NCBI GenBank assembly: GCA_016748015.1
Contig: JAAOMT010000710.1
Coordinates: 62,001-126,000, forward strand
DNA length: 64,000 nucleotides
Source of the DNA: Geosiphon pyriformis uo1
Lineage: Eukaryota > Fungi > Glomeromycota
Direction: 5' to 3'
Program-made: the position numbers and the translations under genes
The notes under the pieces: generated by a model
Database searches by the model: none
What the model was told of the DNA's origin: nothing
What the model saw: only the letters and a program-made list of their open reading frames with translations
Shown here: piece after piece, positions 2,638-62,052 of the stretch
Layout of the letters: every line of letters starts with the position of its first letter
Numbering within the stretch: position 1 is the stretch's first letter

Positions 2638-2769
2638 ATCTTTAATTTTAAATCTTTTTTTTGTTGATCCCCCAGTTACAACGAAAGCGAGATATTGTTG
2701 AAGAAAAAGTTTCCCTTATTTCTTATTCTTTTTGTATTTTAACTATTTCTTTAGACATATCTTTGTTTG

Positions 2770-9395: not shown

Positions 9396-9530
9396 TGTTG
9401 CTTTGATTGGTCCAAATGGCTGGTTATGTGTAAAAAATGCATAATTTGTGCCTAGTTTAAATCGCTTAGTTTGATGTATTACACTAGGTAATATTTGGGC
9501 CTCACTTATTAAATGTTAATAAAAAAAAAA

Positions 9531-10079: not shown

Positions 10080-11162
10080 TGTTACCCAAGTAAAAAAACC
10101 GATCCAAAGTTATGAAAAAACATAACCAAAACGTGACATAATACAGAATAATACGCAATAACGTTGAATAATGCATTATAACATAAGATAATGTGTTATA
10201 ATACAGGATAACACAGAATAGCACACAATAACATAGGATAACGTGTTATAATGCAGGATAACACAAAATAACATGTAATAATGTCAGATAACGTATTATA
10301 ACATAGAATAACTAGCAATAACATAGAAAAACAAAGCAATAACAGAAACAACAAAGCAATAGTTAGCAATAACAAGACAATTGAAAGCAATTCTGTAAAA
10401 CCAAAAGAATATATAAAAGCAAGTAGTTGTAGAAGTGAGAAAAAACAGACAGATAAATACGAACCTTTAGACAAGAATTAAATATCCATATCCCTTCATC
10501 CTTTATTATCTTCCCTATTTCATCTCCTGAAATAAACCAATTATTAAAAGAAATCAGAATCACAAATTCATGTTCTCAAACTTTGTAGAATTTACATAAA
10601 TTAACCCTTGTCTCATATCTCTATTCTAGGACAGATGCTCTTAGCATAACCGCCTTGAACCTATTAATGATTTGGACTAATTGCTCTTGATTACAGTGAT
10701 TGACGATACTAATTTATCTTTTTTCTCTTTCTTTTTCTTTTCTTTTTTCTTTTTCTTTCTTTTTCTGTCTATTTTGGTGGAGTGGCAACATAGTAAAATC
10801 AACTGTCTGAGAATAGATTTCGTGATAGCCTGGTAAAAGAGGGAAGCTCTCCCTAAGTTTTGGATATTAACATTATCTTGTTAGCTTACTAGAAGGGTGA
10901 AAAGACAACGCCAGACCCTAATGACTGTGCTCATTAGCTCAGAGAAGAAAACTCACATTTACGAAAAACGTTGCAATCAACAAAAGACAAACTCTGTGCC
11001 TTATAACCAAAAAACTCAATGGGTAAATTCACATCCAAGAATAGACCTTCAGAGACTGATAATCAAGACTAAAGCCAACAGAATTACACGGAAAATGCAT
11101 CATCAATAATTGAAAGCACCAAACGTTACCATTTCCCATACCCATTAAGTTTACCCATAACA
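10080..11162 (+). repeat. Element A 5' LTR (1083 bp)
   Basis: Direct repeat of 29118-30199; U3 tandem array about 10130-10330; TATA-like TATATAAAAG about 10410. Confidence 0.95.
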
Positions 11163-16085: not shown

Positions 16086-17066
16086 TGTTACCAGACAAAA
16101 TTAGAGATATTGTTTAGCATGAAATTACCTTTATAAATTTTATCATTAATTAGCATATATTATTGTTTTAAATTATCACTTATTACATTAGCAAAATGTC
16201 CGAAATTATCATTTAATTAATAACTCAATTTGCACATAACACAAATATAACCTAAGTGCAATAATCAAATCATACAATACCCCGAAATATGTAACATTCA
16301 AAAGTTTGCCAAAATTTGTAGAAATTTGCTGAAATAATTGATAGTTCACCAAAATATCTAATAGTTCGCAGAAATAACTTGTAGTTTGCCGAAATGTATC
16401 TTTAGTTCAGTAAAATTGTAGAAAAAAAGCAAAGTTCAAGTTCATAGAATAGTGTTACAACAAGTTGTATAAAAGAAGAGCTTCTCTCTTCGAAAAAATA
16501 TATCTTACTTTAGATTTATTACTTAGAACTATTTCTACACACACAAAAAAAAATAAATATCAAATAATTTGAAAAACCAAATTCTTTAATTATTGCACTT
16601 GGAAGATTCTCAAAACCCAACTAATGTTTTGAAATTGATTAGCTACCAATTTCAGTAAACTGTTAGTGACTCCAGGCCTGGATAGAAAACGTTTCCCTTA
16701 ACAGAATTCTATTTCTTTTACATTTCTTTTATTTTTTTTTTCTTTTCTTATTACAATCATTAGGGTAGCCTACAGACAAGATTCCTGTAGAAAAATTGAC
16801 TTTCACAGCAAAGTAACTACACATTTTTAGTGAGCTTCCAGATGAGCAATTCCTGGAAAAAAGTTGACATTTACTACAATGTAACTATATAAAGTAACTG
16901 GCAAAGAATTGGCCATTCCACTTATAAGCCCAGTAGTTCAAATTATAGGAGATAATTTGAAAATAAATTCAGTTACTGGAGGTTCAACTACTTCCTGGAA
17001 ATGTGAATTCACAGCAAATCAACATCAACAATATTCAAGAAAAGAGACCAAAAACCTCCGGTAACA
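16086..17066 (+). repeat. Element B 5' LTR (981 bp)
   Basis: TGTTACC...GGTAACA; direct repeat of 24998-25977. Confidence 0.95.
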
Positions 17067-17111
17067 TTTGGTGCTCTCCCACAAAAATAACACAGCAACA
17101 ACAAATTCAAA

Positions 17112-20100
17112 GTGGCAACCACATCAGACACAACAACTCTAGAGTATTACCAGTCAATTTACACCCACTGCAAGCAAATATTCAACATTCCAGACAGAAT
17201 TGAAGTTGTCAAGAAATCAGTATACCAATACATTGAAAACCGCATCAACAATTATTTTTTTGAAAACTACAATATCTCAGAAGTTAGAAGCAATCTTTAC
17301 AATAATTTAGCACACTATTCACAGTTGAGAACTGAAGACCTTAACAGTGAAACACTTGCCACTTACTTTTAAGAACTTAATTTTAACATTATCAAGTACT
17401 GTGAAGAAACATATCTAGTGCAGTCTTAATACTCTATTGATTTTGAATTAGAAACAGAAACAAGCAACAAAGGCAAACACAATTTGAAACAATACTCAAA
17501 AACCATCCCAAATACTCCAATACTACCAAAGACAACTGCCAAACACTTACAAACACCTGAACAAGGAACCAGTTCAAAACTCCCACTTACTATTACACCT
17601 TTTTCAGCTTTATTTGTACAAGCACAAACACCTAATTCACTCTTGAATTGATTTGCAAGACCAGAAGATTTTACATTACTCAGAAGTCCCACCAGACAGC
17701 AAGAACTCCTTCAAACTAGTTCCAATCTTCTTGACTTTCTAGCTGAAAATCAAAGTGAACACTCTGAGACAGCAATGAATAAAGAAAACAACTCTGAAAT
17801 AACTGAAGAGGAATCAATAGACAGTGAAAACAAAGAAGACAAAATGACAACATACATTGCAAAAATCTCTGAATTCAATGGAGAAAACATTGAGACCAGT
17901 CCCCAAGAATGGCTTGACCAAGTTACTAAAGCTGAAGATGCAAATGGATGGAATGCTGCCAGAATGTTAAGAACAATTCCCTACTTTCTCAAAAGAACAG
18001 CAGGAGAATAATTTAAAAACTTGGCTGCTCTATTCAATGATTGGGACACTTTCAAAGCAGTCTTCCTTAAACAGTTCACTAACAATAATACCTTTATCAC
18101 TCTTCGAAATCGGTTTCACAATATCAAACAAGAATCCTCCGAATTTGTTATGACTTATATTGGGAAATTCAACAAACTTCTCAGACAAATTCGCCAACTT
18201 GAAACTAATGATTATTATTCCAATGCTCAAATCTTGGATCAATTTATTGCTGGTTTAAAAAATAAACTGATTAAAAAGGTTTACCCACATGCCCTAGAAG
18301 ATTTAAATTCTGCCATTCAGCATGCAAAGAGATATAAAATGGCCATGGAAGAAGCCAATTGTACAAAACTCATGAACTTAGCCATTGAAGAAACCAGCTC
18401 AGCAGCTGAAGAGAAAATTGACCAACTTGTAAAAAAAGTCGAAAACTATTTCATCAACCAACAACAACAGCAACCCCAAAGATATCAACCACCAAAAACA
18501 GAATCAAAACAACTTCACATCACCTTCTAATAACCAGTCTCAGAGTTGCCATTACTATGAAATTCCTGGCCACTGGAAAAGAGATTGCAGAAAGCTACAA
18601 CAAGACCAACAAAATAGAAGTAATCAACATTACTCTCCACCACAGCAATCTTATTATCAACCACCACCACCAGCCTACTATCTACCAAGACCCCAATATC
18701 AAAGTAACTATTATCAGCCTGTTCCACAGCCAATCCAACAGCAATACCAACAACCATCCACACAACATTATCAAGTGTCTGCTCGAAGATTAATCCCACA
18801 AAATCAATTTACACCACAAAACTGATACCAAGTAAACAACAATAGAATTAATTCGAATAACCAATTAGTTCCCTGAAATTCAGCTCAGCCAAGACCCACT
18901 CATTATCATACTCAACCTAGCTATCTTATAATACCTGAAGAACAGGATTTTCACCATACTACACCCTTGGAAGATAGAACTGCAGCATGACAACAAAACC
19001 CTTTCTATACTCCTACCACAATTCCACCAGCCAGAATTGCTGAAAATGCCAACCTCTCAGACATATTCCCTTTTGAGTTTGAAGCAAATGAGTCACTATT
19101 TCTGCTTAGCAATGTGGCCACCAATGAACAAAAAGCAATTACTGCTATGTACACTGAAACAGAAGTCAAAAGAAAGGCAATTTGCTTGATCCTAGACAAT
19201 GGATCTACCAGAAGCATTATCACCTACCAGTTAATACAACAGTTAAAGAGAAATGTTGACTGACCAGCTCAAACAGTAATCGTTACTGCCAATGGCATGA
19301 AAAAGATTCCAGTAGGAGAAATTGACAATTTTCTATTCACTCTTGATGGAATTACCATTCCAGTCAAAGTTTTTGTAATAGATGTGCCCCAGTACCAAGC
19401 TCTTGTTGGAAATGATTGGCTTTAAAAAGCCAATGCTAATCTGAATTGGGAGACACAAGAGTTAAAAATCTCCTATCAAGAACAACACGCCCAGGTACCT
19501 GCCACTTGTAGTACATTCAACAAATGCTCCGAAAAAGCCCCAGTTTTTGAATTCGAACTAGAAGAAGAAAAGCCCATCATTGAAACATTTATGGCACTTG
19601 GATCAACCTCCAATTGGGCCAATGAAACTGAACAACAGTATTTTTCAACAAATGATTCTTCTGAAACAAAAGAACTAGTGACAACCGGATGGAATGTCCC
19701 CTATTCAAAACCAGAAGCATGAAAACAATGCCCCTATATTCCACTCAAATGCAAGGACTGCCACAAGAAACTCTCATCAATGGGAGCCTGCATTTTACCT
19801 GAAGAAGAATATAAAAATCATACTTGTTATTACTGCAAGGCTTGCTATAGAGAATGATAGGGCCATCTAATAAAAAGAAGTGGAAAATAGGATAACACTC
19901 TTTGTTTGACTTGTGGAGATATGCTATTGGAAGAATGCAATTGGATTGATATAGCAATGAGAGGGGAAGTCTGCGATCAAACCTGCCAATATGCTTTATC
20001 AATTTCAGAAAAAGTAAAAAGAGGAACACCCTTTAATGCAGCATACAACAGTGCTCTCAACAAACTTTATCACTACTCCCATGATGCTGAAATGATTTTT

Positions 20101-22721
20101 GACCTAGCAATAGCATTAATTAATAGAGCTACCAAAGAAGATGTCCGTCAAATAAAGAAAGCAAAATACATTAAATACATCATGGAATTAGCTGGATTCG
20201 ATTATGAAGATGAAGTAGAAGTCTACCACCAAATTGCAAGTCACATCTACTCAACTCAAGAAGCTCAAATTCAATGATTAGAGCAAATAAATATTAGGTT
20301 ATGTAAAGAATGCATTATGCCTTGTAATGAACAGTGGTGTCCTGAATGCTATGCTCTTAGCATTCTTCTGCTCAGTAAAAACAATGAGAACGAAATTGAA
20401 TTTGAAGAACCTGAAGCAACGAAAAAAATTGAAACAACACCCATCTATCTTGTTGAAAATCAGCCTGTCTTATAACTCAAATACTTTAACAACAATGGAC
20501 AAGGAATCAAACTCGAAAAAGCACACGAAATTGATGCTAGATATGACCTAAGATATTCAGACAAGAATACTCTTGTTCTCAAACCCAAATTTCTCACAAA
20601 AATCAATCTCAAAATTGCACCCGAAATCCCACCAGGAGCAATGGTTCAAATTGTCTCCTGGTCTTTTCTGGCAAGCAAAGAAATCAATGTTAGAGGAGGA
20701 ATAATCAATGGTGGATATACTGGAGACATTACAGTGATGTTTCAAAATGAAACTGACAAACCATTCAAAATCAAACATGCTGAAAAAATTGCCCAAGCTA
20801 TTTACTTACCCCTAATCAACATTTTGGGTTTGCAACTAGTCAATCAAAGAGAACAATTAGGAAAAAACAATAAAAAAACCCAAGATTTTGGTTCAACTGG
20901 ACAATTCACAATTCCAGTTAATATAGCTCTTAACACACAGAACAAATCCCACCAGATTCTTAGACTTCCACAACCAATTATTATCTTACCCTTTGAAGAA
21001 CATCCAGAAATCTACATCTGCCCAAAGCCAACAACCACACAACAAATTTTTGAGTCCAATGAACAAGTCTGCTTGGAACATAATATTTTGATCCCAAACA
21101 TTTATATTCCAGAAGGAACAAAGAAAGTCCAAGTTACTTTTTACAATCCCAATAATTACTCCATAGTTTTATTAAATAATTTAGATATCAGAGTTATTCA
21201 CAGTAATATATTTCAGCAAGAATTACCTCAAACAGTCCCCGATTTTTCTGAAATTATTGGACATTCACTACCAAAAATCAACCCAAACCCCAGCTCTGAA
21301 AACTACCATGTTGTTATGGAAAAACTATTTTGAATCAACATGGAACAACTTGAACCACAACAACAAAACCAGCTCAAAGAGCTAATTGCAGAATTTGCTG
21401 ATATCTTTGCCAAAAACAACAATGACTTAGGAAAAACCGATTTGGTTCAACATTAAATCTACACAGGAGATGCTAAACTGAGATGACAACAAGCCTACTG
21501 AGTTGCTCCAAAAAGCCACCAATTTATCCAAGAAGAAGTACAACAAATGCCTCCATGAGTCCTTGGGCTTCACCTGTAGTGCTAATTAAAAAGAAAAATA
21601 GAAAAATACAATTTTGTGTTGACTATTGACAACTCAACAATGTTACAATTAGAGATGCCTACCCTCTTCCCCAAATTGATGACATGTTAGATGCCCTTGG
21701 AAAATCCAAATATTTTTCAATACTAGATTTAGAAAGCGGTTACTGGCAAGTTGCTATGGATCTCAAAGATCGCCCCAAAACAGCATTTACCACCCAAGGC
21801 AGAAATTACGAGTTCAACATAATGCCTTTCGGATTATGTAATGTACCAGCAATGTTTCAGAGATTAATGGATGTTGTGTACCAAGGACTCTTTTGGAAGT
21901 CAGTAGTCGTTTATCTTAATGATACTGATGTTTATTCTTTATCATTCGAATTACACTTAAAACACCTGTGAAAAGTTTTTCAATAATTATGAAAAGCAGG
22001 ACTAAAACTCAACATTGAAAAATGCTACTTTAAAAAAACAAGCTTGGCCTTTCTTGGTTATATTGTTAGTAAAGATGGAATCAAACCAGACTCTGGAAAA
22101 ATCAGTGCTGTCAAAAACTTCAAAACTCCTCGAAACACTACAGAACTAAGAGGATTCATAGGATTAGCCTCCTACTATCGGAAGTTTATTAAAAAATTCT
22201 CAGAAATTGCAAAACCTTTCAACCAGCTTACCACTAAAAATGTCAAATACAAATAGATTACTGAATGCCAAAATGCATTTAAAATCCTCAAAAAAAAACT
22301 AACAACAGCTTCAATTCTCACCTACCCAGATTTCAGCAACCAATTCTGATTAGCAACAGATACATCTTATACTGCCTTTGGTACTATCCTATCACAACTG
22401 GATGACAATGGAAATGAGCAAGTAATTGCCTATACTAGCAGAACATTAAAACCAGCTGAAAAAAATTATTCTGCCACTGAATTGGAAACAGCAGCTGTAA
22501 TTTGGGCCCTATATCATTTCAACCTTTATCTCCGGCCAAAGAAATTCGATATTATCACTGATAATATTGGACTCAAATAGCTTCAAAACAAAAATACTCA
22601 GCTAAATGCAAAACAAACCTGATGGACAGGATTTCTAGCAAACTATCGATACATAGTACATTACAAACCAGGAAAACTCCACACCAATGTTAACTGTTTC
22701 TCCAGAATGAGACAAGATTAG
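17112..22721 (+). pseudogene. Element B gag-pol (gag, protease, Cys-rich domain, dUTPase, RT, RNase H)
   Basis: YIAKISEFNGE, LILDNGS, GGIINGGYTG/KIAQ/DFGSTG, LDLESGYWQV, MPFGL, VVYLND, ends SRMRQD*. Confidence 0.93.
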
Positions 22722-22772
22722 AAAACACAAAAACCAACACTCAACTTAACCAACCAAAACAGCCAACAAACA

Positions 22773-24158
22773 ATGAATTCGGAAAACTACAACAATCTCA
22801 AACAATATTTGGAAATATTAACAATCCCAACAGATTGGTTTCCAGATGAAAAACATCAACTACAATAACAAGCCAAATAATATTTTCTACACAACAACAT
22901 TATTTATCATTGAAATTTCAAAAACCCAGACAAACCACTTAGATTAATACAAGAACAGAAAAAAGAAACCATATTATACAACATGCACTCAAATCCTTCA
23001 TTAGCACACTTTGGAAAAGACAACACCACCCAAAGAACATGAGAATACTACTTTTGGCCTCAAATAAGAAAAAACATTCACAAATATGTCGAATCTTGTA
23101 ATAGTTGTTAAAGAAGAGGAGGAACACATCCTACTGAACCATTAAATCTGATTAAAGTTGGACAACCCTTTGACTGGGTTGGTATCAATTTAGTTGGACC
23201 ACTATCTATCACCATGTAAGAAAACCATTATATTGCAGTAGCTGTAGACTATCTTACTAAATGGCCCGAAGCCAGAGCCATTCAATGAGCAGATGCGAAA
23301 TCAGTAGTAAATTTTATCTACAAAGACATCATTTGTAGACATGGATGTCCAATTAAACTTTTATTCGATCAAGGGACACATTTTGTGAACAACCTGATAC
23401 AAAAAATTTGCGAACAATTCAATGTCAAAAGACCTCTGTCTTCACCCTACCATCCACAAACAAATGGACTTGTGGAACATTTTAACAGAACATTATGTAA
23501 GTCATTAGCCAAAGTCTCAACCAATTTTGAGCAAGAGTGGGATATCTTTATTCCATCAGTGTTACTAGCATACAGAACACTAAAACAAGATACCACAAAA
23601 CACACACCATTTGATCTAACTTATGGAAGGACAGCAATATTACCAATTAGTTTTACAATAGAAACATACCCAGCACAACCAATCGATAAAAACAATTTCC
23701 AGGAAATGCTTCAATGAAGAGCCTACACGCTTCTTAGCACATTGGAAGAAAGATGACGAAGAGCAGCCACCTATATTGAACACTTCCAAACTCAACAAAA
23801 AGAACGGCATGACAACAAATTGCCTTCAGTTACCAATAATTTTAAAGTTGGAAACAAAGTTCTCCTACACAGAACTAAAGCTAAAAAACAATGGAGTGGA
23901 AAATTTGAAAATAAATGGGATGGACCATTCTTTATCCATGAAATACTAGGCAATAGATCATACAAGTTAAGACTTGATGACAAAATCCTAGCAAAAGTTG
24001 CACATAGAGATCATTTAAAACACTATTATTCCAAAAACAATCCTGAACCATTAATTCCACAAATTGGTACACATTCCCTTTTAGTCAATCCTGAAGATAT
24101 TCTCTGAAACTTAGAACCAATAGTTGTCATTGAACAACCATTCAACTTAAACACTTAA
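22773..24158 (+). pseudogene. Element B integrase (separate ORF)
   Basis: Starts MNSENYNNLKQYL; HHCC, DYLTKWPEA, YHPQTNGLVE, KWDGPF (GPY/F module), tail LEPIVVIE. Confidence 0.9.
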
Positions 24159-24309
24159 TTTAATTTTACTAGTTATTCCCTTATAATTTAAAAAATAACT
24201 TCACAAAAACAAAACAAAACAAAACAAAACACACTGAAAGACAAAAATAACATAAAAATCTACATACCAAAAATAATTTTAATCTATTTTTCTCACTCAA
24301 ATTTTTATA

Positions 24310-25029
24310 ATGACTATCCCTCAAAATATTCAACAAATATCTCAAAAATTAATGCTAACTTTAAAGACAATACCTGAATTATCTATCACTATTACAGGAA
24401 AACATATTAATTATACCCAAACAGAAATAGTTGCCAATTTAGCCCCAAATTCACAAAATTATCACCCCTACAAAAAAAACACAAAAAGTTACTCTGGAAT
24501 TCAACTACCAGAACTTTTGAAGCTTGCTTTAAAAGAAAATTTAATGTTCACTCCTATTAGTATTCTACCAAATGCTACTATTCAACAAAAACTTCAACTG
24601 TGTCTTAATGAAGAAAACCATGATTATACTCCAATATATAGATATTTCTACATTGGAAAAACACTTCATGAACAAAAACGGGAGCTTACAGCAGCAAACC
24701 TCACAAAAGAAGCTATTCAAAAACAACTTCACAACGAATTCAAAACAACAGCTGGACCTACAAACAGTTATTATAAATTAAGAGCTGTTCTTAGACTTTA
24801 TAACCTATTTCACACCTGTGAAAACGTCTTACAAAACCCAATTTTACAGTCTTTGAAGATTCAATACATTGGAAAGCTCACAGAACTGAAATTTCAACAA
24901 TTTTCAGACCAAATTTCTTCAATAATTTTGGATTATTATCTGGAAATTATGGACAGTACTTGGACTTTGATGGAGCTCAGTCTTGAAGAGAAGGTTATGT
25001 TACCAGACAAAATTAGAGATATTGTTTAG
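24310..25029 (+). CDS. Element B ORF3, unknown protein (probable ancestral stop at 24986)
   Basis: 239-aa open frame homologous to ORF3 of A, C, D and E; the DFDGAQS* end shared with other copies lies in a shifted frame. Confidence 0.8.
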   Translation: MTIPQNIQQISQKLMLTLKTIPELSITITGKHINYTQTEIVANLAPNSQNYHPYKKNTKSYSGIQLPELLKLALKENLMFTPISILPNATIQQKLQLCLNEENHDYTPIYRYFYIGKTLHEQKRELTAANLTKEAIQKQLHNEFKTTAGPTNSYYKLRAVLRLYNLFHTCENVLQNPILQSLKIQYIGKLTELKFQQFSDQISSIILDYYLEIMDSTWTLMELSLEEKVMLPDKIRDIV

Positions 25030-25977
25030 CATGAAATTACCCTTATAAATCTTATCATTAATTAGCATATATTATCGTTTCAAATTATCACTTATTACAT
25101 TAGCAAAATATCTGAAATTATTATTTAATTAATAACCCAATTTGTACATAACACAAATGTAACCTAAGTGCAATGATCAATCATGCAATACCCTGAAATA
25201 TGTAACATTCAAAAGTTTGCTGAAATTTGTAGAAATTTGTAGAAATAATTAATAGTTCACCAAAATATCTAATAGTTTGCAGAAATAACTTGTAGTTCAC
25301 CGAAATGTATCTTTAGTTCAGCGAAATTGTAGAAAAAAAGCAAAGTTCAAATTCATAGAATAGTGTTACAACAAGTTGTATAAAAGAAGAGCTTCTTTCT
25401 TTGAGAAAATGTATCTTACTTTAGATTTATCACTTAGAATCATTCCTACACACACAAAAAAAAATAAATATCAAATAATTCAAAAAACCAAATTCTTTAA
25501 TTATTGCACTTGGAAGATCCTCAAAACCCAACTAACATTTTGAAATTGATTAGCTACCAATTTCAGTAAACTGTTAGTGACTCCAGACCTGGATAAAAAA
25601 CGTTTCCCTTAACAAAATTCTATTTCTTTTACATTTCTTTTATTTTTCTTTTCTTTTCTTATTACAATCATTAGAATAGTCTACAGATGAGATTCCTGTA
25701 GAAGAGTTGACTTTCACAGCAAAGTAACTACACATTTTTAGTGAGCTTCTAGACAAGCAATTCCTGGGAAAGAGTTGATGTTTACTACAACGTAACTATA
25801 TAAAGTAACTGGCAAGAAATTGGCCATTCCACTTATAAGCCCAGCAGTTCAAATTATAGGAGATAATTTGAAGATAAATTCAGTTACTGAAGGTTCAACT
25901 ACTTCCTGGAAACGTGAATTTACAGCAAATCAACATCAACAATATTCAAGAAAAAAGACCAAAAACCTCCAGTAACA
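24998..25977 (+). repeat. Element B 3' LTR (980 bp)
   Basis: Direct repeat of 16086-17066, preceded by PPT. Confidence 0.95.
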
Positions 25978-26920: not shown

Positions 26921-28288
26921 ATGAATACACTTACTTATCAACGACTATATTAATACCTATTAACACTATGTTTCAAGGAGATATTATCTCAATAGGAACA
27001 AAGTACCATACAAAAACAAGCCCAAAATTATTTTATTTAAGACAACCAACTATATTGACGAGAACACCAAAACCACCCCAACCCACAATGACTAATCAAG
27101 AACAGTGAAAGAGAAACTATACTATATAGCATGCACTCAGATCTGACTGCAGGACACTTTAACAAAGATGCTACTCTCGAAAGAACACTAAACTTATACT
27201 ATTGGCCAATGATGTACAAAGACATTTTCAAATACGTGCTCAATTGTGACACATGCCAGCAAAGAGGAGGAGCAAGATCAACAGAACCACTTCGACTCAT
27301 TCCAGTTGAAAATCTATTTGATAGAATCGGGATCAACTTGGTTGGACCTCTTTCAATTACATCCCAAGAAAATTGCTATATTATTGTAGCCATAGACTAT
27401 CTTACAAAATGACCAGAAGCCAGAGCAATCCAAGTGGCTGATGCCAAAACAGTAGCCAAATTTGTGCATCAAGACCTAATTTGCCGACATAGATGTCTGA
27501 AAAAATTATTATCTGATTAGGAAACACACTTCGTTAATAATATGCTGACTGAACTAAGCCAATGGTTTAGAATAAAGAGACCCTTATTGTTATTATATCA
27601 CCCACAAACAAATGGACTGGTAGAATGATTTAACAAAACACTGTGCAAAGCACTAGCAAAAATAAGTCATGAAAACAAACAAGAATGGGACTTATTCATA
27701 CTTTCTGTACTCTTTGCATACCGAACATTGAACCAAAATATGACTCAGTTCACACCATTCAAACTAGTCTATGGAAAAAAAACTACATTACTAATTGAGC
27801 GAGTGATACTGTTATACCCAACAGAAACAATCAATGAAGAGAATTTTGAAGCTACCTTACACCAAAGAACATACCAGCTAATGAAAACATTAGAAAACAA
27901 TCGAAGAACAGCAGCTGACAATATTAGTCACGCTCAAGAACGACAAAAAGAAAGACATGATAAACACCTATCAGAACAACCAATGGAATTCAAAATTGGA
28001 GACCAAGTACTGTTACATTATACAAAAGCTGAGAAACAGTGGAGTGAAAAGTTTGACCCAAAGTGGGACGGTCTATTTTACATACATGAAGCATTAGGAA
28101 ATGGAGCTTACAAATTACGATTGGAAGACAGGATTTTAAAGAAAGTAGCACATGGAAATCAGTTAAAAATTTATCATGAAAAACAGGAATTATCATCATC
28201 AATACCTCAACTAGGAACACAAATTTCATTAATCAGACCAGAAGATATACCACAAGATTTGGAACCAATCATCATCATTGAAACGTAG
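26921..28288 (+). pseudogene. Element A integrase (separate ORF)
   Basis: ATG 10 nt after the pol stop; MHSDLTAGH...CDTC, DYLTK, YHPQTNG, KWDG, ends LEPIIIIET*. Confidence 0.9.
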
Positions 28289-28368
28289 ACAATGGGCAGC
28301 AAATTAAATTAGAGAATTCAAATATATATAGCATTCGAAAAGCAGCAAGAAACGATAGAAATTTCAAC

Positions 28369-29103
28369 ATGGACCTTTCAGATCAAATTTTAAAATTATC
28401 TAAACAATTATTTGAAACAATTCAAAAATTGACATTTCAAATAGAAATAACAATTGATAAAAAAGAAATACGGTACAAAGATAAGAACAGGAGAGGGGAG
28501 GACGAGAGTTTAATTAGAACTAAATGTTCCCTTTTCTACCCACCACCCGAAAGGCAATGTTGGAGGAAAAATTGCCTTCAGGCAGAAGGTAGAAAAGAAG
28601 GAAGCAAAAAACGAGAAAAAGGTTACAAAAGAAGATACTTGGTCCCTGAGCTCAAAGAAATAAAAGAAGCTTTAGCTCGTGAGACCAAACTCCTCAAAAC
28701 AGGAGAGTGGACACCTGACAACGTCCTGGAATGGAAAGAAAGACTTCCTCCAGCTTATTGGTTCTACAAAATTGGAGAACAGCTTGATTTGAAAACACCA
28801 TATGAAGACCTCAGCTAGAAAACGTTCAACAAAAAAGCAATACAACAAGTAGAAAAATTCATAGGGAAAAACAATCTGACCCTACATTACAAAGCAATAT
28901 ACTGACTATACGCCACCTTCCAGCATTGCCCAAATGTACTACTAAACAGATCTATGAAAACCATAACGGTTAACAACATAGAATGAATAACCAATCAACA
29001 GTTCAAAGACCTACAAAAGACAATACTTGAGACAACAATCAAACATTACACAAACGAAGCCACGATAACAGATACATACGGTTTTGCAGAAGCTCAATTT
29101 TAA
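28369..29103 (+). pseudogene. Element A ORF3, unknown protein of about 244 aa
   Basis: One frame with three internal stops explicable as transitions; ends GFAEAQF* at the PPT. Confidence 0.8.
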
Positions 29104-29117
29104 AAAGAGAGGAATAA

Positions 29118-30199
29118 TGTTACCTGAGTAGAAAAACCAATCCAAAGTTATGAAAAAACGTGACCAAAATGTGACATAACACAGAATAATGTGCAATAAT
29201 GTTGGATAACGCATTATAACATAGAATAATGTGTTATAATGCAGGATAACACAGAATAGCGTACAATAACGTAGGATAACATGTTATAACACAGAATAAC
29301 ACAGAATAACATGTAATAACATCAGATAACGTGTTATAATATAGGATAACTAGTAATAACGTAAAAAAACGAAGCAATAACAGAAACAACAAAGCAATAG
29401 CTAGTGATAGCAAGACAATTGAAAGCAATTCTATAAAACCAAAAGAATGTATAAAAGCAAGTAATTGTAGAAGTGAGAAAAGACAGACAGATAGATACGA
29501 ACCTCTAGACAAGAATTAAATATCCATACTCCTTTATCCTTTATTATCTTCCCTATTTTATTTCCTGAAATAAACCAATTATTAAAAGAAATCAAAATCA
29601 TGAATTCATGTTTTCAAACTTTGTGGAATTTATGTGAATTAACTCTTGTCTCGTACCTTTATTCTAGGACAGATGCTTTTAGCATAACTGCCTCAAACCT
29701 ATTAATGATTTGAACTAATTGCTTTTGATCACAGCAATTGATAATACTAATTTATCTTTTCTCTTTTTCTTTTTTTTTTCTTTTTTTTTTTCTTTCTTTT
29801 TCTGTCTATTTTGGTGGAGTGGCAACATAGTAAAATTGACTGTCTGGAAATAGACTTTGTGATAGCCTGGTAAAAGAGAGAAGCTTCCCCTAAGTTTTGG
29901 ATATTAACATTATCTTGTTAGCTTACCAGAAGGGCGAAAAGACAATGCCAGACCCTAACGACTGCACTCATTAGCTCAGAGAAGAAAGCTCACATTTATG
30001 AAAAACGTTGCAATTGATGAAAGACAAACTTTGTGCCTTATAACCAAAAAACTCAACGGGTAAATTCACATTCAGAAATAGATCTTCAGAGACTGATAAT
30101 CAAGACTAAAGCCAACAGAATTACGTGGAAAACACATCATTAATAATTGAGAGCACCAAACATTATCATTTCCCATACCCACCAAGTTTACCCATAACA
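29118..30199 (+). repeat. Element A 3' LTR (1082 bp)
   Basis: Direct repeat of 10080-11162; PPT AAAAAGAGAGGAA upstream. Confidence 0.95.
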
Positions 30200-31204
30200 A
30201 CATTTAAATTAGCATTATTTAAGTTTGGTAAAGTTGTTTCTATTAAAATACTGCTAATTAATTTTTATTAAAAAGCTTTGGTTAAATTTAAAAGTTTTAA
30301 AGTTGCTGATTTAATTGTTTTTAAATAATTGATTTCACTAAGAAAAGATTTAATATATATTGGGAAAATTAATACTGATAAACAAATATGGAATTTAAAA
30401 AACTGCTATCATACTTTTTTATATGTTTTGCTAATAAACACTACTGTTTACAATATTTTAAGCTTAATTTTGGCTTATAGTAAGAAAACTTGTTTTATGT
30501 TTTATAATTCTGTCTTTTATATACAAATATATTATATTATTATGTATTTTGAGTTTGTTATAATAAGAATATTACTATTTATTTAACTTCTATTTTTAAA
30601 AACATTGATTTGGTTTGAACTGATTTATAATTTTTTAAATATACTATGTATAAGAACTTGAATTATATTTTAAATATTTGTAAAAATAGTTTTAAATTAC
30701 TTAGTTAAAACTTAAAAAAATTTTTGAATTTAATAAAAAGCATTTTACTTTTATTTATAGCAAAAAGCAGATTTTTATGTCTTGTTTAATTTTTTTTAGT
30801 AATATAATCTGAATTTGTAATAAATAGCAGTTTAAAAACTTTTCTGTTTATATTGTTTTTTAATATTTTATTGGTAGATATGTTAGTCAATAATCTTAAA
30901 GATAGTTTTATTATTTTGGTTTTAATTTTTTAATTTGGATACAATAAAATATTTTTTGAAGCTTTTTTTTAATCATGTTTTCAAGATTGCTTATAAATTA
31001 ATTGATTTTTTATTATTATTATTATTAAATTAAATAATAAATTTATCTATTTCTGTTATTGATTTAATAATAAATATAGCTATTAACAAATTATTACTTA
31101 TTTTTTTGTTTTATATATTGGTTTTGATATCTTTTAGAATTTGTTTTTTAGTAGATTCAAAGTTTTAATTGGCAAAATTAGTGGTCTAAAGACAAATATG
31201 ATAA
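30200..31204 (+). mobile_element. Old LINE ORF1 remnant, segment 3
   Basis: LFKFGKVVSIK...ALVKF...CYHTFLYVL continues the ORF1 frame interrupted at 10079. Confidence 0.65.
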
Positions 31205-33025
31205 TATTATTAGCCAAAATTCAAAATATTATTTAGCATAAAATTATTTTTATAATTTTTACTATTAATTAGCATATTATTATTTTAATTTATTACTTAT
31301 TATTTTATTAAATTATCCAAATTATTATTTAATTAATAACTTAATTTATACAGAACATAAATAAAACCAAATTGTAATAATTAAATTATGTAATATACTA
31401 AACTATTTAATATTCAAAATTTGTTAAAATATTTGGTAATTTAATAAAATATTCAATAGTTTACAAAAATAATTTATAGTTTATAAAAATAATTTATAGT
31501 TCAACAAAATATATTTTTAATTGTTAAAACATTAGAAAAAAAAGTGATAAATTATAAAATAATACTATAACAAATTGTTTAAAAGAAAAGCTTTTTTTTT
31601 GAAAAAATATATCTTAGTTAGAATTCATTTTAATTAAAACCAATATTTTTTTAAATATTTTTTTTACAAATTAACTCAAATAAAACTTACTTAAAAATAT
31701 AAATTTTTTAATTATTTTATTTCGAAATTAATTATTCTATACTAATATTTTAAAATTAATTAGTTACTAAATCCAGTAACTATTAGTAATTTCTAAGCTT
31801 AAATCTAAAACAAATTTCTTAACACATTTTTTATTTCTTTTTTTTAGTTTATTTTTTTTATTTTTTTTTATTTTTTTATTATTGAATAGTTTACAGTCAA
31901 AATTTTTTGTTAAAAAGTTAACTTTATAGTATAATAACTACACACATTTTTAAAAAGCTTAAAGATAAAATTTTTCTGTAAAAAAATCAATTTTTATCAC
32001 AAAATAACTATACAAATAATTAACATAAAATTAGCTATTTTATTATAAGTCTAATAACATACATAATTCAAAATGTAAAAAAATACTTTGAAAAAAGAAT
32101 TAGCTTATCAAAAGTTTATTAACTTTTATTAATAGCAGAATTAACAACAAAACAGTATTAACAACATTAAAAAAAAATAAAAAAATCTTTAGTAATATTT
32201 GGTGCTTTTTTAAAAATAACACAGCAACAATTAAATCAAAGTGGCAATTATATTAGACATAACAATTCTAAAGTACTATTAATTAATTTACATTCACTAT
32301 AAACAATAATTTAAAATTTAAGATAGAATTACAGTTTTTAAAAAACTTTTTTTCAATACATTAAAAACCAAATTAACAATTATTTTTTTAAAAACTACAT
32401 ATTACAGAAGTTAAGTAAAATCTTTTTGAAAATTTCATTTACTACTTAAATAAAAACCCCAAAAAAATTAGTGCTGATATTTGTGCTACTTATTTTAAAG
32501 AACTTAACTACAATATTATTAAGTTTTGTAAAGAAAAGTATCTTGTTAATTTACAATTTGTTTTTAAACTTAAGTTTAAATCCAAAACAAACAACAAAGA
32601 CAAAAAAAACATTTAATCAGTTTATATAACTTTTAACACAGTAAAAGACAACTTTTTAATATTTGCAAGCATCTAAACAAAGAACTAGTTTTAAAATACT
32701 ATTTTTAATTACATCTTTTTTAGCTTTATTTGCTTAAATACAAATATCTAATTTATCTTTTAACCAATTTTTAGAACCAGAAAACTTTATCAAAAGTCCA
32801 ATTTAACAGCCAGAACTAATTTATATTAGCACTAATCTTCTTGATTTTTTAGCAGAAAATTAAAATAAATATTCAAAAATGCTAACCAATAAAAAAACAC
32901 TTCTGAATTTATTAAAAAAACAAACAAAAAGAAAACAAAAAAATAGCAACTTTTTATATTGTAAAAATCTTTGATTTTTTCAGAAAAAACATTAAAATTA
33001 GCTTTTAAAAGTAGTTTGACTTAAA
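31205..33025 (+). mobile_element. Hyper-mutated truncated B-family element (LTR 31205-32197, PBS, start of gag)
   Basis: Colinear with 16086-17920; retains TTTGGTGC PBS and AAAGTGGCAA; most C and G replaced by T and A. Confidence 0.85.
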
Positions 33026-35885: not shown

Positions 35886-36643
35886 TGTTACAGTTTAAGA
35901 ATTTAGAAAAAAGAATCATAAAAATAATACAAACTATTCAATTATAATATAGCACAGTAATAATCTTAGAAAGGTAATGATTAACATAGTAGCAAACACC
36001 ATCTCGCAATAGTGGCAAGCACCAGTTCACAATAGCAGCCAACACCAACTGGTGATAGCAGCAAACACCAGGTTGAAATATCAAAAAGAAAGTATTTTCT
36101 TGTAGAACTACAAACATGTATATATACAGTAGTTTTAATATTGGGAAATAATCAATCAAGTAATAAAAANNNNNNNNNNNNNNNNNNNNTATCACAACCC
36201 AAAGTATTAAGAAACTTACTTGTATTATTTATTGAATGAAACTATCATTCATCAACTGAATCCCTTGGAAGAATAATCCTTGATCAAGATTATTCACGTT
36301 GTTACTAATTGATAAAAGCTTTATTGTGAGAATTAGAAAAGCGCTAAAGACTATTAACATTCTGTGTTTCTAGATTAGAGAAACACATCAGGCAATTGCA
36401 AGAATAGCCTCAGAGAAGACCCCAAACAGTGGGTAGATTTCAGTTCAGCCTCTGAGAAGGAGTACATAAACACACACAACAATCAAGAATTAAAGAATAA
36501 CTTACATTACAACAGTAAAAAAAAAGCCTTCAGTGTAACAGTGACATTATCACACAAATAGAACTGAGGAACTCACAAAAGACTGATTGCAATTAAAGCG
36601 GGATATCAGCAATTAAATATAACAAGAAAACCATCCCGTAACA
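35886..36643 (+). repeat. Element C 5' LTR (contains assembly gap)
   Basis: Direct repeat of 42744-43609; N-run 36170-36189. Confidence 0.93.
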
Positions 36644-36725
36644 TTTGGTGAACCCTACGAGGAAAGAAAATCAAAAAGGAAATAATAATTAGCAATAATT
36701 CATTGCTAAAAAGGAAAAGACAAAA

Positions 36726-39700
36726 GTGGCGACAAAAACCCCTAATCTTACTGTTCTTGAATTCTGCCGTGCTATTTACACACAAAATCAAAGTGATCTT
36801 GGATTACCAGAAGGGTGTTGTCCAGCAGAATCTGCCCTCACTTATTATATCAACGCCAGAATAAATTATCATATAGGAAAGGAAGAAGAACCACACGACG
36901 CAAAACTTGGATTGTATAGAGAATTATCACAATACACTACAAAAGAAGTAGCAGTAATAGCCGCAACTATTGTCAAAATCCATCGAGAAATTGAGCAATA
37001 CGCCAACGAAAATTTTCCAATATCCACAGGAAACACTAGAGAACGCGCCAACAAAACCAAAGAAAATTTAGAAACTAATCAGGAAAGTAACCAGCAAAAA
37101 CTAGAAACACCAGCTCAAATGCCAAAGAAAACTGTCACTTAATCAATAAAGAAACAACGTATTTATTCACCAGAAGATAAATCATACCATTTTTTACCAG
37201 AAAATAAGATACAAATTCCATTAGGAGCTGCATCATCATCAACATCAACTCCACAAATGCCAAGAACTCCTAGTTATATTGATAAAATTAAACAACGTAA
37301 CTGGGGAGACATACCAATTACAGGAGGATATTCATCACTATTCCAAAACCCTCTTTTTCAGCCAAAATTTAGAACGGGGTTTGAAAACCGTGAAGAGGAG
37401 TCTGAATCAGAATCCGAAAAAGAGACCAGCGAAAAAACAATCACAAGACNNNNNNNNNNNNNNNNNNNNAAACTCGTGATCAAGAGGAAGAACCGGATAT
37501 AAGGGAAGCCACCTTTAGGAACGCTCAAGGAAATATTATCCCACCTCCTCTTAGACCAATAAACCCACCAGCAGAAAACGGCAACAAAATGACCACACCA
37601 TACATTGCAAGACTAACAGATTTCTCAGGAGAGGAAGAAGAAACGGACGTGCACACATGGCTCAGAGAAGCACAAAAAGCCATTCAGGCAAATAACTGGA
37701 ATGACCAAAGAGCAATTCAAACATTACTTTTCTTCCTCAAAGGCACAGCCGACTCGTGGTATCAAAGCCTGGAAACAAAACCCACAAGCTTCACCGAATT
37801 TAAAAATGCACTCCTGGAGTATTTTAGCGACCCAAACGCCATAATCCAACTACAGAACGAATTCAATACTATCAAGCAAAATACTGGTGAAACTGTCACC
37901 CAATATCTTGCTCAATTCAATCGAATTCGCCGTCAGATTGAAGCGATTGAACAAGGATACTACACTGATCCTCAGGTTTTAAATCAGTTTATTAGAGGAT
38001 TAAAAAGCAGCATTTTAGGAAGAGTACGCCCTGCCCACCCTAATTCCTTACCAGAAGCCATTACGCTCACCAGAGCCCTTGAATTGGCTGAGAAAGAAGC
38101 TAACCATAGTCAAATGGTTAACATGGTAATGGAGGAAAATAAGACAGAAACATTAGAGAAAAGAGTAACGCGATTAGGGGAGGAACTCTCTAAGAAAATA
38201 GAAAGTTACCTCATCCCGGATCCGAGAAAAAATACATACCAACCACCCCAAAGACGCAGCCAGGAAGTCAGCGACAGTCGAAATAATCGCTCGTCGCGCC
38301 AGGAATTCAGAACAGAAACACGCGCCTGCCATTTTTGCAAACACGTAGGACATTTGATTAGTCAATGTCAAACGCAAATGATACAGGAAGCACGCGAAAA
38401 TAATTATTATGCGCCACCCCAAATGCTCAGAAACCAGTACATGCCAATACCATGCCAATATCCCACCACGTATCAAAATCAAGGAGCTTACCAGCAACAG
38501 CCCATAATAGCCAACCCGAATTGGCGTCCCGAGGCCCGAAATCAGCCCATGTGGAACCAGAATGCATTGGTCCAGAGGAATCCAAACTGTGCCGGAACCA
38601 ATCAGCAAACCAATCCAAACTACCAAAATTATCAACAAACTTACTTTAATATACCGGAAAACCTGATCATCGGAAACAATGATGGTAGAAACATAAACAA
38701 AACCAAAAATTCCTCCAAATTGAGCCAGACAATACCACCAGCAGTTGCCACCGAAGATAGCAGCCTCGCAGCTATTTTTCCTTTTGAATTAGAGGAAAAC
38801 GAGGCTATGTTCAGTGGAGCAGCATTGGACAAAAAACGCCCAATCACTGCTATGTATACGGAAGCCACTGTAAACAATACTCCAATCAAACTTATCTTAG
38901 ACAGCGGATCCGCTGGAAGCATCGTAATGCTTCAACTAGTAAACCAACTAGGTTTCAAAGTTGATCGTGCCATGATGTCCCAAATCATAACAGCCGATGG
39001 AAGTACAAAGCTGCCTTATGGCAAAATCGACTCATTCCCTTTTGAAATTAACGGCATAGTAATACCTACAAAAGTATTAGTAATGGACGCTACACAATAT
39101 CAAGCATTAGTAGGGAATGACTGGCTAACAAAAGCCAACGCCACCCTAGACTGGACCACCCAAGAGCTTCTGATCAATTATAATGGCCACCAGGCCAAAA
39201 TTCCAGCCACTTGTGGCCACTTCCAAAAACCCAGCGCCAACCAAAGACCTACCTTCAAATTTGAGGAAAATCCAGCACTACCAGCCATCGAAACCTATTA
39301 GCTCTCTTGGGCTGATGACCAAAGAACAGGACTACCAGCCGTACCAATATGGACCAGCGAAGAAAGATCCAAATGGAACCAGGTAAGTTCACGAAGAAAC
39401 TACCAGCGACACAGACCAAAGCTAGAATGCTCGGTTTGCAAGAAGAAACTCTTGTCTATGACTGCGTGCAGCGCACCGGACGAAGACCCAAGAAACCCCA
39501 CCCACTACTATTGTAACTGTTGTAACAAAGAAAAATACGGTTACCCAGAAAGACACGGAAAATGGGACGAGAAACCGTGTCTCGCTTGTGGAGAACCATT
39601 ACCAAGAGGGTGCAACTGGAATGACTTACCAAGCAGAGGAGGAACGTGTGACGCAACTTGTCAATACATGATCCTCATCTGTGACTGGGTAAGAGGAGGA

Positions 39701-42324: not shown

Positions 42325-42353
42325 AAATCACCAACCCACCCGCCACAACAACA

Positions 42354-42730
42354 ATGAACAACCACCTTTACAAAAACCTCAGCCAATACTTGGAAACACT
42401 ACAAATAGACGAAAAAATGCCAGTAAAAGAGCTAATTAAGCTCCAAAAATTAGCAAAACAACTATCCAACTATTAGAACCTTTCATTGGAAAAACCAACA
42501 CTACATTCTATTCAAAAACAGTTTACAGAATTTTCAAAGCATTTGAAAACTGTCACAAATTATTGTTGGACCCAACCATGAACATAATAACAACCAACAG
42601 TATTGGACGACTTACCAACTTGCAATTTCAAGAATTACAACAACAAATTAATAACACAGTATTGAACCACTATAGTAACTTAGAATTTAATGAAGAAATT
42701 AACTTCGATTTCGACGGAGCTCAATCTTGA
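42354..42730 (+). pseudogene. Element C: integrase N-terminal stub joined to ORF3 C-terminus
   Basis: MNNHLYKNLSQYLETL...KLAKQ, then in another frame FIGKTN...YRIFKAF...DFDGAQS*. Confidence 0.85.
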
Positions 42731-42743
42731 AAGGAGGGAATAA

Positions 42744-43609
42744 TGTTATAGTTTAAGAATTTAGAAAAAAGAATCATAAAAATAATACAAACTATTCAAT
42801 TATAATATAGCACAGTAATAATCTTAGAAAGGTAATGATTAACATAGTAGCAAACACCATCTTGCAATAGTGGCAAGCACCAGTTCACAATAGCAGCCAA
42901 CACCAACTGGTGATAGCAGCAAACACCAGGTTGAAATATCAAAAAGAAAGTATTTTCTTGTAGAACTACAAACATGTATATATACAGTAGTTTTAATATT
43001 GGGAAATAATCAATCAAGTAATAAAAATCATAACTTATCAAGCAATAGATCCAATTTTATCCAACAAACTCCACTTTAAATCATACTTTCAAATTAAATA
43101 TCCCAAGAAACCTTTAAAATCAAAAAGAAATGAAAAAGAATATTTAGAACTGAACTATCACAACCCAAAGTATTAAGAAACTTACTTGTATTATTTATTG
43201 AATGAAACTATCATTCATCAACTGAATCCCTTGGAAGAATAATCCTTGATCAAGATTATTCACATTGTTACTAATTGATAAAAGCTTTATTGTGAGAATT
43301 AGAAAAGCACTAAAGACTATTAACATTCTGTGTTTCTAAATTAGAGAAACACATCAGGCAATTGCAAGGATTGCCTCAGAGAAGACCCCAGACAGTGGGT
43401 AGATTTCAGTTCAGCCTCTGAGAAGGAGTACATAAACACACACAACAATCAAGAATTAAAGAATAACTTACATCACAACAGTAAAAAGAAAGTCTTTAGT
43501 GTAACAGTGACATTATCACACAAATAGAACTGAGGAACTCACGAAAGACTGATTGCAATTAAAGCGGGATATCAGCAATTAAATATAACAAGAAAACCAT
43601 CCCGTAACA
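42744..43609 (+). repeat. Element C 3' LTR (866 bp)
   Basis: TGTTA...GTAACA direct repeat. Confidence 0.95.
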
Positions 43610-51619: not shown

Positions 51620-51633
51620 TTATCTCCTTCTTT

Positions 51634-52255
51634 TTAATATTGAGCTCTATCGAAATCTTCATTTTAAATTAATTCTAATACTTCTTTTTCAAGTATTGTT
51701 TGTTCGACTCTGTTCTTCACGTCTTCTACTTATGTATTGTTCATTCTTTTTCATTGGTTAATGGTTATGATTTCCATGTCAGAATGTAACAGTATTTCTG
51801 GATAGTTCTGAAATATGCTGTATTTTAACATGTAGTGTTGAATTCATTTTCTTTCTGATGAATTCTTTAATTTGTTGTATTATGTCTTGGTTAAATATTC
51901 TCTTGAATTTTTCGATATACAACTCTTAAATATTCAACTTTTGATCTAACTAGTAGTAGCAATATGATATTGAAAGTTGTTTTGTCCATTGCTTCTAATT
52001 CTTCTTTGTAAATTCTTCTGTTGGTGCCATAATAAGTATTTTCCCAAAAGTGTTTTTCACTTTTTCTATTAAGTTATCTGTTCAGTTTTTTTCATTCTTT
52101 GATAACCGCTAATATGGTGTGTTCTTTGTCTTTTTTTTGATGTTTTAATAGCAAATTGTTTGGTTGTTAACAATAATTTCTATGTTTAACAATTGTTGAC
52201 TTAAGGCTTGGAACAGTTGTTAAGCTATAGTGTAAATATGATCTGGTATTTCCAT
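51634..52255 (-). pseudogene. Element E ORF3
   Basis: MEIPDHIYTIA*QLFQAL...IEIIVNNQTI to DFDRAQY*. Confidence 0.75.
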
Positions 52256-52310
52256 TTTTCTTGGTTGCTTTTGTTGCATGTACTGTGTCTTTATATACTC
52301 TTTTGTTTGT

Positions 52311-53676: not shown

Positions 53677-53706
53677 CTTTTACTATATTTTTGGGTTGAA
53701 ATGGTT

Positions 53707-61422: not shown

Positions 61423-62052
61423 AAGGAGATTACTGACAACATTCACTCACTAACACAACAACTCTTTTAACTAATCCAACAACAGAAAATAGAAATTACA
61501 ATCAACCAATAAACTATCAAATACACAAACACCATGAAAGAAATACAAGATAAAATATGGAGAAAAACAGGAAACACTGTTAACAAAATAATTGAAAAAG
61601 TAAAATTGGCAATAGAAACACAACCAAAAGTAACTCAATATCAAGAACTAACTATAGAAACTTGAAATTGGTAGAGACAACAATTTCCAAAAAACTTTTG
61701 TTACTTTTATTTGGAACAACACTTGAACATTCAAAACTTGTATATAGATAAAACAAAACAATTATTTAACACTACAATACTGCAACAATTGGAACAATTT
61801 GTGAGAGAGAACAATTTGATTACACAAGCAAAAGCCATTTATTGGCTATATACTGGATTTCAAGATTGACCAGAAATCTTACTCAATCCAAAAATAGACT
61901 CCATTACCATTAACCAAATAGAAAAAATATTCAATGCTTAATTCGAAGACTTACAAAACAAGATAACATAAGTAATTCTTAAAAAAAAAGTTCAAGAAAT
62001 TCTCAAAGATGAAGAATTAGAATTAAAAGATTTCAATGGAACTCAATATTAA
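61423..62052 (+). pseudogene. Element D ORF3
   Basis: Homologous to A and E ORF3; ends DFNGTQY* at the PPT; start codon eroded. Confidence 0.7.

Follow-up and report, generated by a model that had tools for sequence, protein, structure and literature searches.

Five nested Gypsy elements and their third reading frame

The window, a 64-kb stretch of Geosiphon pyriformis DNA, contains five nested Ty3/Gypsy elements that bear dUTPase, A to E, as delimited by self-comparison and by the junctions between them. Element A spans 10080-30199 on the plus strand, according to LTR pairing and self-comparison; its 5' LTR (10080..11162, plus strand) is followed by a primer-binding-site-like sequence, and its 3' LTR (29118..30199, plus strand) displays 89.6% identity to the 5' LTR, with 111 transitions and 0 transversions between them. 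Element B (16086..25977, plus strand, with LTRs at 16086-17066 and 24998-25977) lies inside the reverse transcriptase of A. Element D (~35344 to 62932, plus strand) is split by elements C (35886-43609, plus strand) and E (50926-60597, minus strand), which both lie inside it. Target-site duplications of 4 bp accompany C (ACAC/ACAC), A (ATAT/ACAT) and B (GTAT/GCGT), and no clear duplication was found at the junctions of E. The carriers display gag followed by PR-RT-RH-INT, paired LTRs with TG...CA ends, a primer-binding site and a polypurine tract, all features of Ty3/Gypsy elements, and the Pfam domains found across C and E follow the Gypsy order: Ty3_capsid, aspartyl protease, dUTPase, RVT_1, RT_RNaseH and Integrase_H2C2/rve. 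The dUTPase domains, located between protease and reverse transcriptase, occupy 40021-41127 (C), 20476-21333 (B) and 55460-56248 (E). The 3' open part of the integrase of A (27629..28288, plus strand) ends in an SH3-like (GPY/F) domain, whose match to SH3_Tf2-1 (E 6e-6) is under the curated cut-off of that profile, and Pfam searches revealed no match to the Chromo profile in either integrase or ORF3.

Some features of the window lie outside this common plan. The LTRs of element C are the most alike of all (97-99%), yet its integrase and the first half of ORF3 are gone (42400-42452), which may reflect non-autonomous mobility or a deletion after insertion; the assembly gaps in this element are three 20-base runs of N at 36170, 37450 and 41788. 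A decayed LINE-like element occupies about 1-10000 on the plus strand, with a reverse transcriptase at 6887-7441, an RNase H at 7965-8588 and unnamed upstream ORFs at 2843-4729. A remnant at 31200-33000, with ~16% GC and 68-70% similarity to the LTR and 5' region of element B, is an older, more heavily mutated relative of that element.

ORF3 is a sense frame between integrase and the 3' LTR, present in all five of the window's Gypsy elements with a mapped 3' internal region, and a family profile built partly from the window copies finds exactly five places in the window at E < 0.05. The ORF3 of A (28369..29103, plus strand) begins 80 nt past the integrase stop and comprises 244 codons with three internal stops (28816, 28903 and 28984); its longest open stretch from the ATG is 149 aa. 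An intact 244-aa relative from the A family (P0122) is 79% identical to this copy. In the contigs of one DNA run, position 28816 is C in 20853 of 20918 units of depth, which we do not take as copy number, and the stop at 28816 is therefore private to the window copy. The ORF3 of B (24310..25029, plus strand) is open, encodes 239 aa and continues 32 nt into the 3' LTR. In C, a 3' remnant holds the last 92 codons (42452..42730, plus strand), and a fuller member of its family exists (P0183). The copy in D (61423..62052, plus strand) has 209 codons and seven stops, with a homologous start that is not ATG, and that in E (51634..52255, minus strand) has ten stops and a frameshift; each has an intact relative (P0166 for D, P0165 for E). 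The preliminary description of this DNA had listed an ORF of 205-245 aa after integrase in A, B, D, E and partly C. Homologous frames indeed lie at all five places, but only that of B is open, and the copies in A, D and E do not stand as intact ORFs.

Ty3/Gypsy elements have a known class of additional sense ORFs, termed aORF-3S, which lie between pol and the 3' LTR and are kept across copies (Vicient and Casacuberta 2020, PMC7264820). ORF3 belongs to this class, being a separate sense ORF in the same interval, kept across copies and under selection.

Conservation and range of the protein family

Intact representatives of ORF3 are 209-244 aa long, and share 22-40% identity between families, with BLASTP E values of 1e-50 to 4e-4 over most of their length. 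The cross-family alignment, made of intact representatives of A, B, D and E and the first 200 residues of the C member, displays two conserved modules flanking a variable linker: an N-terminal pattern, M.I...I....QQL.........EITIN...I.Y, and a core pattern, Y.Y..G...GK.N...[KR]..YRL...F......LL.........N.IG..TN.QF. The conserved N-terminus and the conserved core reported from the window alone are thus both borne out by the family.

We collected 258 ORF3-related proteins, 105 of them near-full-length and falling into seven subfamilies. In three protein searches the named matches were all G. pyriformis proteins labelled 'hypothetical protein' (119 of the best 120 of 199 matches, 37 of 38, and 102 of 102), and the two remaining matches were the window's own proteins. 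Searching 1.84 billion representatives with a profile returned 132 matches at E<=0.001, of which 98 were new, nine of these being less than 50% identical to earlier matches. Seventeen distinct profile matches were looked up and proved to be 11 proteins of G. pyriformis and six environmental proteins from metagenomes. The six metagenomic relatives (196-234 aa) retain both modules at 24-32% identity, with E values of 1e-26 to 4e-5, and the family is therefore not confined to Geosiphon. DNA context was obtained for one of them, at two loci (L191 and L192). The order in L191 is an upstream ORF, a TATA box, ORF3, the cis element described below, a purine run and an LTR-like start. The upstream ORF ends in IRPQDI, resembling the tail of the A integrase, IRPEDI; this putative integrase gave no Pfam match and no alignment above threshold. 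ORF3 homologues were found neither in a scan of viral contigs nor in the first scan of metagenome DNA. An abundant protein family of Rhizophagus presumably carries a similar pattern, 'A..IY.LF...G...I...S...I..LT'; no named member of it appeared among the looked-up matches of the profile search.

Searches of Pfam, PHROGs, NCBIfam and PDB sequences returned no confident match to ORF3. The best PDB sequence matches, RGS18 (E 0.26), importin-5 (E 0.16) and CALM-1 (E 0.65), were taken as chance. Another candidate, phrog_23683 (Bacillus prophage protein BC1856), was set aside: its best E value of 1.4e-4, seen in a B-heavy alignment with 36 of 65 members, corresponded to an hhalign probability of 8.5% over one helix. 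A description of ORF3 was not found in the literature searched, most subscription papers lying outside its coverage. ORF3 constitutes an undescribed protein family in a known slot.

Selection on ORF3

Protein-guided codon alignments give pN/pS ratios of 0.34-0.77 in all ten family pairs, with bootstrap upper limits of 0.51-0.97, values that carry no correction for transition bias or for the protein-guided alignment. Synonymous sites are near saturation between families (pS 0.72 for D and E). The protein-guided method favours low ratios, and the test was therefore redone on DNA-only alignments. In such an alignment of the D and E copies, differences at the first, second and third codon positions amount to 0.42, 0.25 and 0.45 (p 4e-5), and the ratio of second to third positions is 0.56, lower than in any of 200 neutral simulations that included transition bias (lowest value 0.67). 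The codon-position pattern appears at p<0.05 in four of the six DNA-aligned pairs, two pairs with B display no codon signal (p 0.21 and 0.89), and the pattern is absent from the LTR controls. Two close metagenomic copies differ by eight synonymous and nine non-synonymous codon changes in 216, a mild signal. The D/E integrase tail, with differences of 0.18, 0.16 and 0.13 at the three positions (73 transitions, 11 transversions), has no codon signal. Selection acts between lineages, and to judge from this tail inserted copies decay neutrally.

The suggestion that ORF3 is an accessory gene kept by selection is upheld by the ratios below 1 in every family pair and by the codon-position signal, where a dN/dS near 1 would have spoken for neutrality; nor does the family merge with a known one in Pfam, PHROGs or NCBIfam. 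On these comparisons ORF3 is almost certainly a selected accessory protein of the element. The opposite reading is that ORF3 is a captured fragment, from the host or from another transposon, that brings no benefit and whose frame survives by chance or through a constraint at the DNA level. In favour of such a passenger are the broken state of four of the five window copies, the apparently neutral changes after insertion, seen in the D/E integrase tail, and the FDGAQ end discussed below, which is a DNA constraint. However, pol is just as broken in these copies, the best integrase frames containing 7 stops in A, 10 in B and 3 in E. The five families and the six metagenomic relatives retain the two modules at the identities given above, with selection visible in the codon positions, and we consider a passenger very improbable.

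Predicted solubility of the encoded protein

The highest 19-residue Kyte-Doolittle mean lies between 0.27 and 1.28 in all six representatives, and by hydropathy none of the six has a signal peptide or a membrane helix, which agrees with the preliminary description and implies that ORF3 is not env. The proteins are basic (pI 8.5-9.7), the pI being inflated by G-to-A mutation, which converts Glu to Lys. By its place on the sense strand in the env position, ORF3 might be taken for a diverged env or env-like protein serving spread between cells or nuclei; a length of 209-244 aa with neither signal peptide nor transmembrane segment, the lack of a cysteine pattern conserved across families, and the soluble, mostly helical structure predicted by AlphaFold make this extremely improbable.

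A conserved DNA element before the polypurine tract

The 3' end of ORF3 coincides with a conserved DNA element. In A this element occupies 29080..29117 (plus strand), reads FAEAQF and includes the polypurine tract at 29102-29114; elsewhere it lies at 24963-24997 (B), 42707-42743 (C), 62029-62065 (D), 51657-51623 (E) and 1406-1442 of L191. The C-terminus had been described as F(D/A)GAQ and one more residue, with the stop abutting the polypurine tract. The placement stands in A, where the stop of ORF3 overlaps the purine tract, but B ends otherwise: there DFDGAQS is in another frame than ORF3, which continues across the purine tract and enters the LTR. Among the 120 B-family proteins listed, 90 read the element as W-T-S/L-T/M-E-L-S-L and none ends in GAQ, and the metagenomic relatives P0290 and P0299 also use the B frame across it. 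In L191, ORF3 stops 60 nt earlier, and a similar element is non-coding and lies directly before the purine run and a TGTTA start. Being off-frame in B and non-coding in L191, FDGAQ has to be abandoned as a protein motif. The presence of one DNA element in three reading states points to a cis function, perhaps in plus-strand priming or integration.

The conserved cis element adjoining ORF3 lends some interest to the idea that the protein is an RNA-binding export or packaging factor, comparable to CERV or retroviral Rev, which would recognise a structured part of the element RNA, for instance this motif before the purine tract. ORF3 is small, basic and soluble, and CERV offers a precedent for a protein of such kind encoded by an LTR retrotransposon (PMC10309623). 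Nevertheless, the cis element folds weakly (-1.1 to -7.0 kcal/mol), its position points towards plus-strand priming or integration, and no arginine-rich motif is conserved in ORF3; we regard an RNA factor as rather unlikely.

Structure models and remote similarities

AlphaFold models were obtained for a B member (65 rows, mean pLDDT 71, pTM 0.60) and a D member (63 rows, mean pLDDT 77, pTM 0.67), with most core blocks at pLDDT 80-94 in both. In both models the N-terminus consists of a helix and a beta-hairpin, predicted with moderate confidence, and is followed by a disordered linker and a confidently predicted helical core. Within this core, a helix is followed by a conserved G-K-x-N turn and by a helix bearing the conserved K/R-x-x-x-R-L-Y-x-x-F.

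Hints of likeness over this core to DUF1016_N (PF17761) and to the ParB/KorB-type HTH (PF17762) come from profile and fold comparisons alike, with all scores below significance. The shared layout is Y-[FW]-x-I-G, a helix, a G-K turn and a helix with R-x-Y-x-x-F. In Pfam searches DUF1016_N reached E 0.095 in two of 13 members, at ~13 bits against a cut-off of 32.8, and gave no match in 11 further ORF3 proteins. Alignment of ORF3 with DUF1016_N by hhalign yielded E values of 0.002-0.017 and probabilities of 3-13% over 56-64 columns, against E 0.18-0.6 in reversed-alignment controls; the probability dropped with a broadened alignment, and DUF1016_N had been chosen from the faint match, so the profile-profile test is not independent of it. 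With reference alignments of 15 and 25 domain sequences, the positive control, DUF1016_N against the ParB HTH, matched at 94.6%, and ORF3 against the ParB HTH directly stayed below 1%. ParB-family chains were placed over the core in both fold searches, with VIA Z scores of 2.9-4.0 (SopB and Spo0J): Spo0J 1vz0 had Z 4.0 and rmsd 5.6 over 90 aligned residues, and SopB 3mkw had Z 3.0 and rmsd 5.0 over 92. A sigma-F region (1l0o) had Z 4.7 and rmsd 2.4 with 57 of 57 residues aligned. Such Z values are within reach of unrelated helical proteins; the best VIA Z scores were 5.1 and 4.0. Foldseek returned no match at E<=0.001 in PDB or viral models, a result with no bearing on fold novelty. In the ESM Atlas, unnamed clusters (0.89-0.92, with 141-160 shared features) and DUF6192 (0.86-0.90) were found and are treated as leads only; two DUF6192 sequences were found, both partial.

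ORF3 differs from the DUF1016 and ParB proteins in a turn longer by approximately two residues, in the N-terminal helix-hairpin module and in carrying neither a nuclease nor a CTPase domain, and it is filed in neither the DUF1016_N nor the ParB HTH family. From the modelled core we infer an HTH-like DNA-binding unit, the leads being weak and none of them significant. On the same models, the odds that ORF3 binds nucleic acid appear slightly better than even.

A candidate internal promoter

ORF3 is either out of frame with pol or lies behind its stop, and its translation therefore requires an mRNA of its own or reinitiation. In A, a TATA-box-like motif (28323..28330, plus strand) is located within the 80-nt spacer that separates the integrase stop from ORF3, 46 nt before the ATG. 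The motif TATAWAWR is found in three of four spacers, at -46 (A), -40 (D) and -42 (E), against a background of nine occurrences in 34,725 nt of element interiors, or 0.016 expected per 60 nt. The spacer of D and E is common by descent, which leaves two independent cases in the window, not three. The spacer of B contains only TATAAT, at about -128, and in L191 the TATA box lies about 100 nt before the ATG. On the strength of these motifs, ORF3 is probably transcribed from an internal promoter of its own.

Comparison of the spacers with the U3 regions of their own elements revealed no common sequence beyond that seen in shuffles (p 0.28-0.99 in five own-LTR comparisons), though sites that are short or degenerate would be missed where the copies are heavily mutated. 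The U3 regions contain family-specific arrays of short tandem repeats (29150-29380 and 62130-62290 in the window, 1600-1670 in L191 and 915-1030 in L192), which are possible binding sites for ORF3 or for host factors.

C-to-T mutation and a probable exchange of ORF3

The LTR pairs of A to E together display 325 transitions against seven transversions. Transitions are most frequent in CpG (0.33-0.59 where unchanged CpG remain) and also occur in CpA, CpT and CpC (0.15-0.46 in A, B, D and E, the four older pairs). This excess is consistent with a RIP-like or methylation-driven hypermutation, and the stops in ORF3 would fit the same process. Such hypermutation would make insertion ages estimated from LTR divergence too high. 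In Gigaspora margarita and Mucoromycotina, RIP signatures have reportedly not been detected (bioRxiv 2021.03.30.436303), and PMC12543289 makes no mention of Geosiphon or Glomeromycotina.

Divergence between D and E is uneven along the elements. Transversions per site amount to 0.09 in gag, 0.013-0.03 in integrase and 0.21-0.22 in ORF3, and to 0.14 overall in the LTRs (0.03-0.27 by block), so that ORF3 and LTR are both far more diverged than integrase. The step in divergence lies just past the shared TATA spacer (52320-51634 on the minus strand of E against 61365-62052 of D). Synonymous sites jump as well, which argues for a crossover just after the spacer and not for fast protein evolution alone. 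To judge by this step, ORF3 was likely swapped between the lineages D and E by recombination.

These observations bear on two further accounts of ORF3. One is an anti-silencing factor acting against host cytosine methylation and the ensuing C-to-T mutation, and swapped between lineages under that conflict. The predominance of transitions in the LTR pairs, most of all in CpG, the peak of D/E divergence in ORF3, the dUTPase in the same elements, and the high CG methylation of transposable element loci in the relative Rhizophagus irregularis (bioRxiv 2021.03.30.436303) would all suit such a factor. Still, neither sequences nor models hint at a demethylase, a deaminase inhibitor or an RNA-silencing suppressor, the saturated synonymous sites of D and E fit recombination without an arms race, and the copies that carry ORF3 were mutated nonetheless; an anti-silencing role therefore seems unlikely. 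The other account makes ORF3 an integration-targeting tether, which would bind integrase and chromatin in place of the absent chromodomain. In its favour, integrase ends without a chromodomain, the five elements are nested within one another and within AT-rich repeats, and a fold search placed the C-terminal domain of CHD1 (2n39) near the top (Z 5.0, rmsd 3.0, 80 aligned). This Z score is not above background, though, and the integrase tails of D and E are near-same in transversions whereas their ORF3 proteins are only ~40% identical, a pattern ill-suited to a tight partner of integrase; a tether is quite improbable.

A putative regulator of the element's own LTR

The best explanation of ORF3, to which we assign a probability of roughly 40%, is a separately transcribed, soluble DNA-binding regulator that promotes transcription from the element's LTR. 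A low-level transcript from the internal TATA promoter behind integrase would give rise to ORF3, which would bind DNA by its helix-turn-helix-like core, and the N-terminal module might oligomerise. By analogy with foamy-virus Tas, the target would be the U3 of the same element, and transcription from the cognate LTR would thereby be raised. ORF3 would be needed only during the transposition of the lineage, and inserted copies would then decay by C-to-T mutation. The codivergence of ORF3 and LTR between D and E is expected for a regulator that travels with its target, and physical linkage alone also explains their travelling together. That ORF3 regulates the transcription of its own element remains, on the models, a tentative proposition. 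Set against the three functions offered in the preliminary description (transactivator, silencing suppressor or targeting factor), the evidence favours a DNA-binding regulator without being decisive.

Tas (Bel1) is produced from an internal promoter and activates both that promoter and the LTR (PMC8670036, PMC4929722, PMC13220597). Like Tas, ORF3 is a small accessory gene close to the 3' LTR and preceded by a candidate internal promoter, and the ORF3 frame of B overlaps U3. In contrast to Tas, the host is a fungus and the element is without env, no sequence match of ORF3 to a named viral protein was found, and the comparison of spacer and U3 revealed no common response element, so that Tas serves as a working analogy only. 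CERV of the C. elegans element Cer1 is likewise a Gypsy-type accessory protein outside gag and pol; it is made from a spliced mRNA and exports genomic RNA (PMC10309623), and no homology between it and ORF3 was seen.

Among Gypsy elements, sense additional ORFs of plants are env-like, have membrane segments and can be spliced (PMC7264820), whereas ORF3 is predicted to be soluble, possesses its own TATA motif and belongs to none of the families in Pfam, PHROGs or NCBIfam by sequence match. Fungal Gypsy elements with an 'add. ORF with unknown function' and with dUTPase between protease and reverse transcriptase have been described (Novikova 2010, PMC2864245), the latter arrangement being shared by PosPlaTy3-5 and the window elements; Tcn1-like elements carry a chromodomain, which the window elements do not. 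The available text of PMC3248453 mentions neither dUTPase nor an additional ORF of this kind. An extra Gypsy ORF without an assigned function is thus a known kind of gene, and the ORF3 protein family itself is new.

Significance

For genome annotation, the finding means that more than 250 annotated 'hypothetical proteins' of G. pyriformis are copies or chimeras of a transposon ORF3 and not host genes. We also observed gene-caller chimeras in which ORF3 is fused with integrase tails, gag, protease or the LINE reverse transcriptase and RNase H of neighbouring elements (P0132, P0048, P0267, P0270 and P0281).

Gag and pol are held to be sufficient for LTR retrotransposition, and to our knowledge few accessory proteins of LTR elements have a known job. 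Intact natural copies in four families (G9A89_015195 for A, G9A89_006498 for B, G9A89_013590 for D and G9A89_010852 for E) make the idea of a regulator testable. LTR sequence makes up 41.2% of the G. pyriformis genome (PMC11952901), and a regulator of the expanded Gypsy families would accordingly offer a handle on their multiplication under strong C-to-T attack. A further-reaching possibility, which we hold to be unlikely, is that ORF3 represents a new retrotransposon HTH family remotely related to prokaryotic ParB and DUF1016 proteins, expressed from an internal promoter and exchanged as a cassette with its LTR, which it would activate or de-silence against a fungal C-to-T hypermutation defence as yet undescribed in Glomeromycotina. 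If true, such activation or de-silencing would account in part for the expansion of LTR elements to about 41% of the Geosiphon genome.
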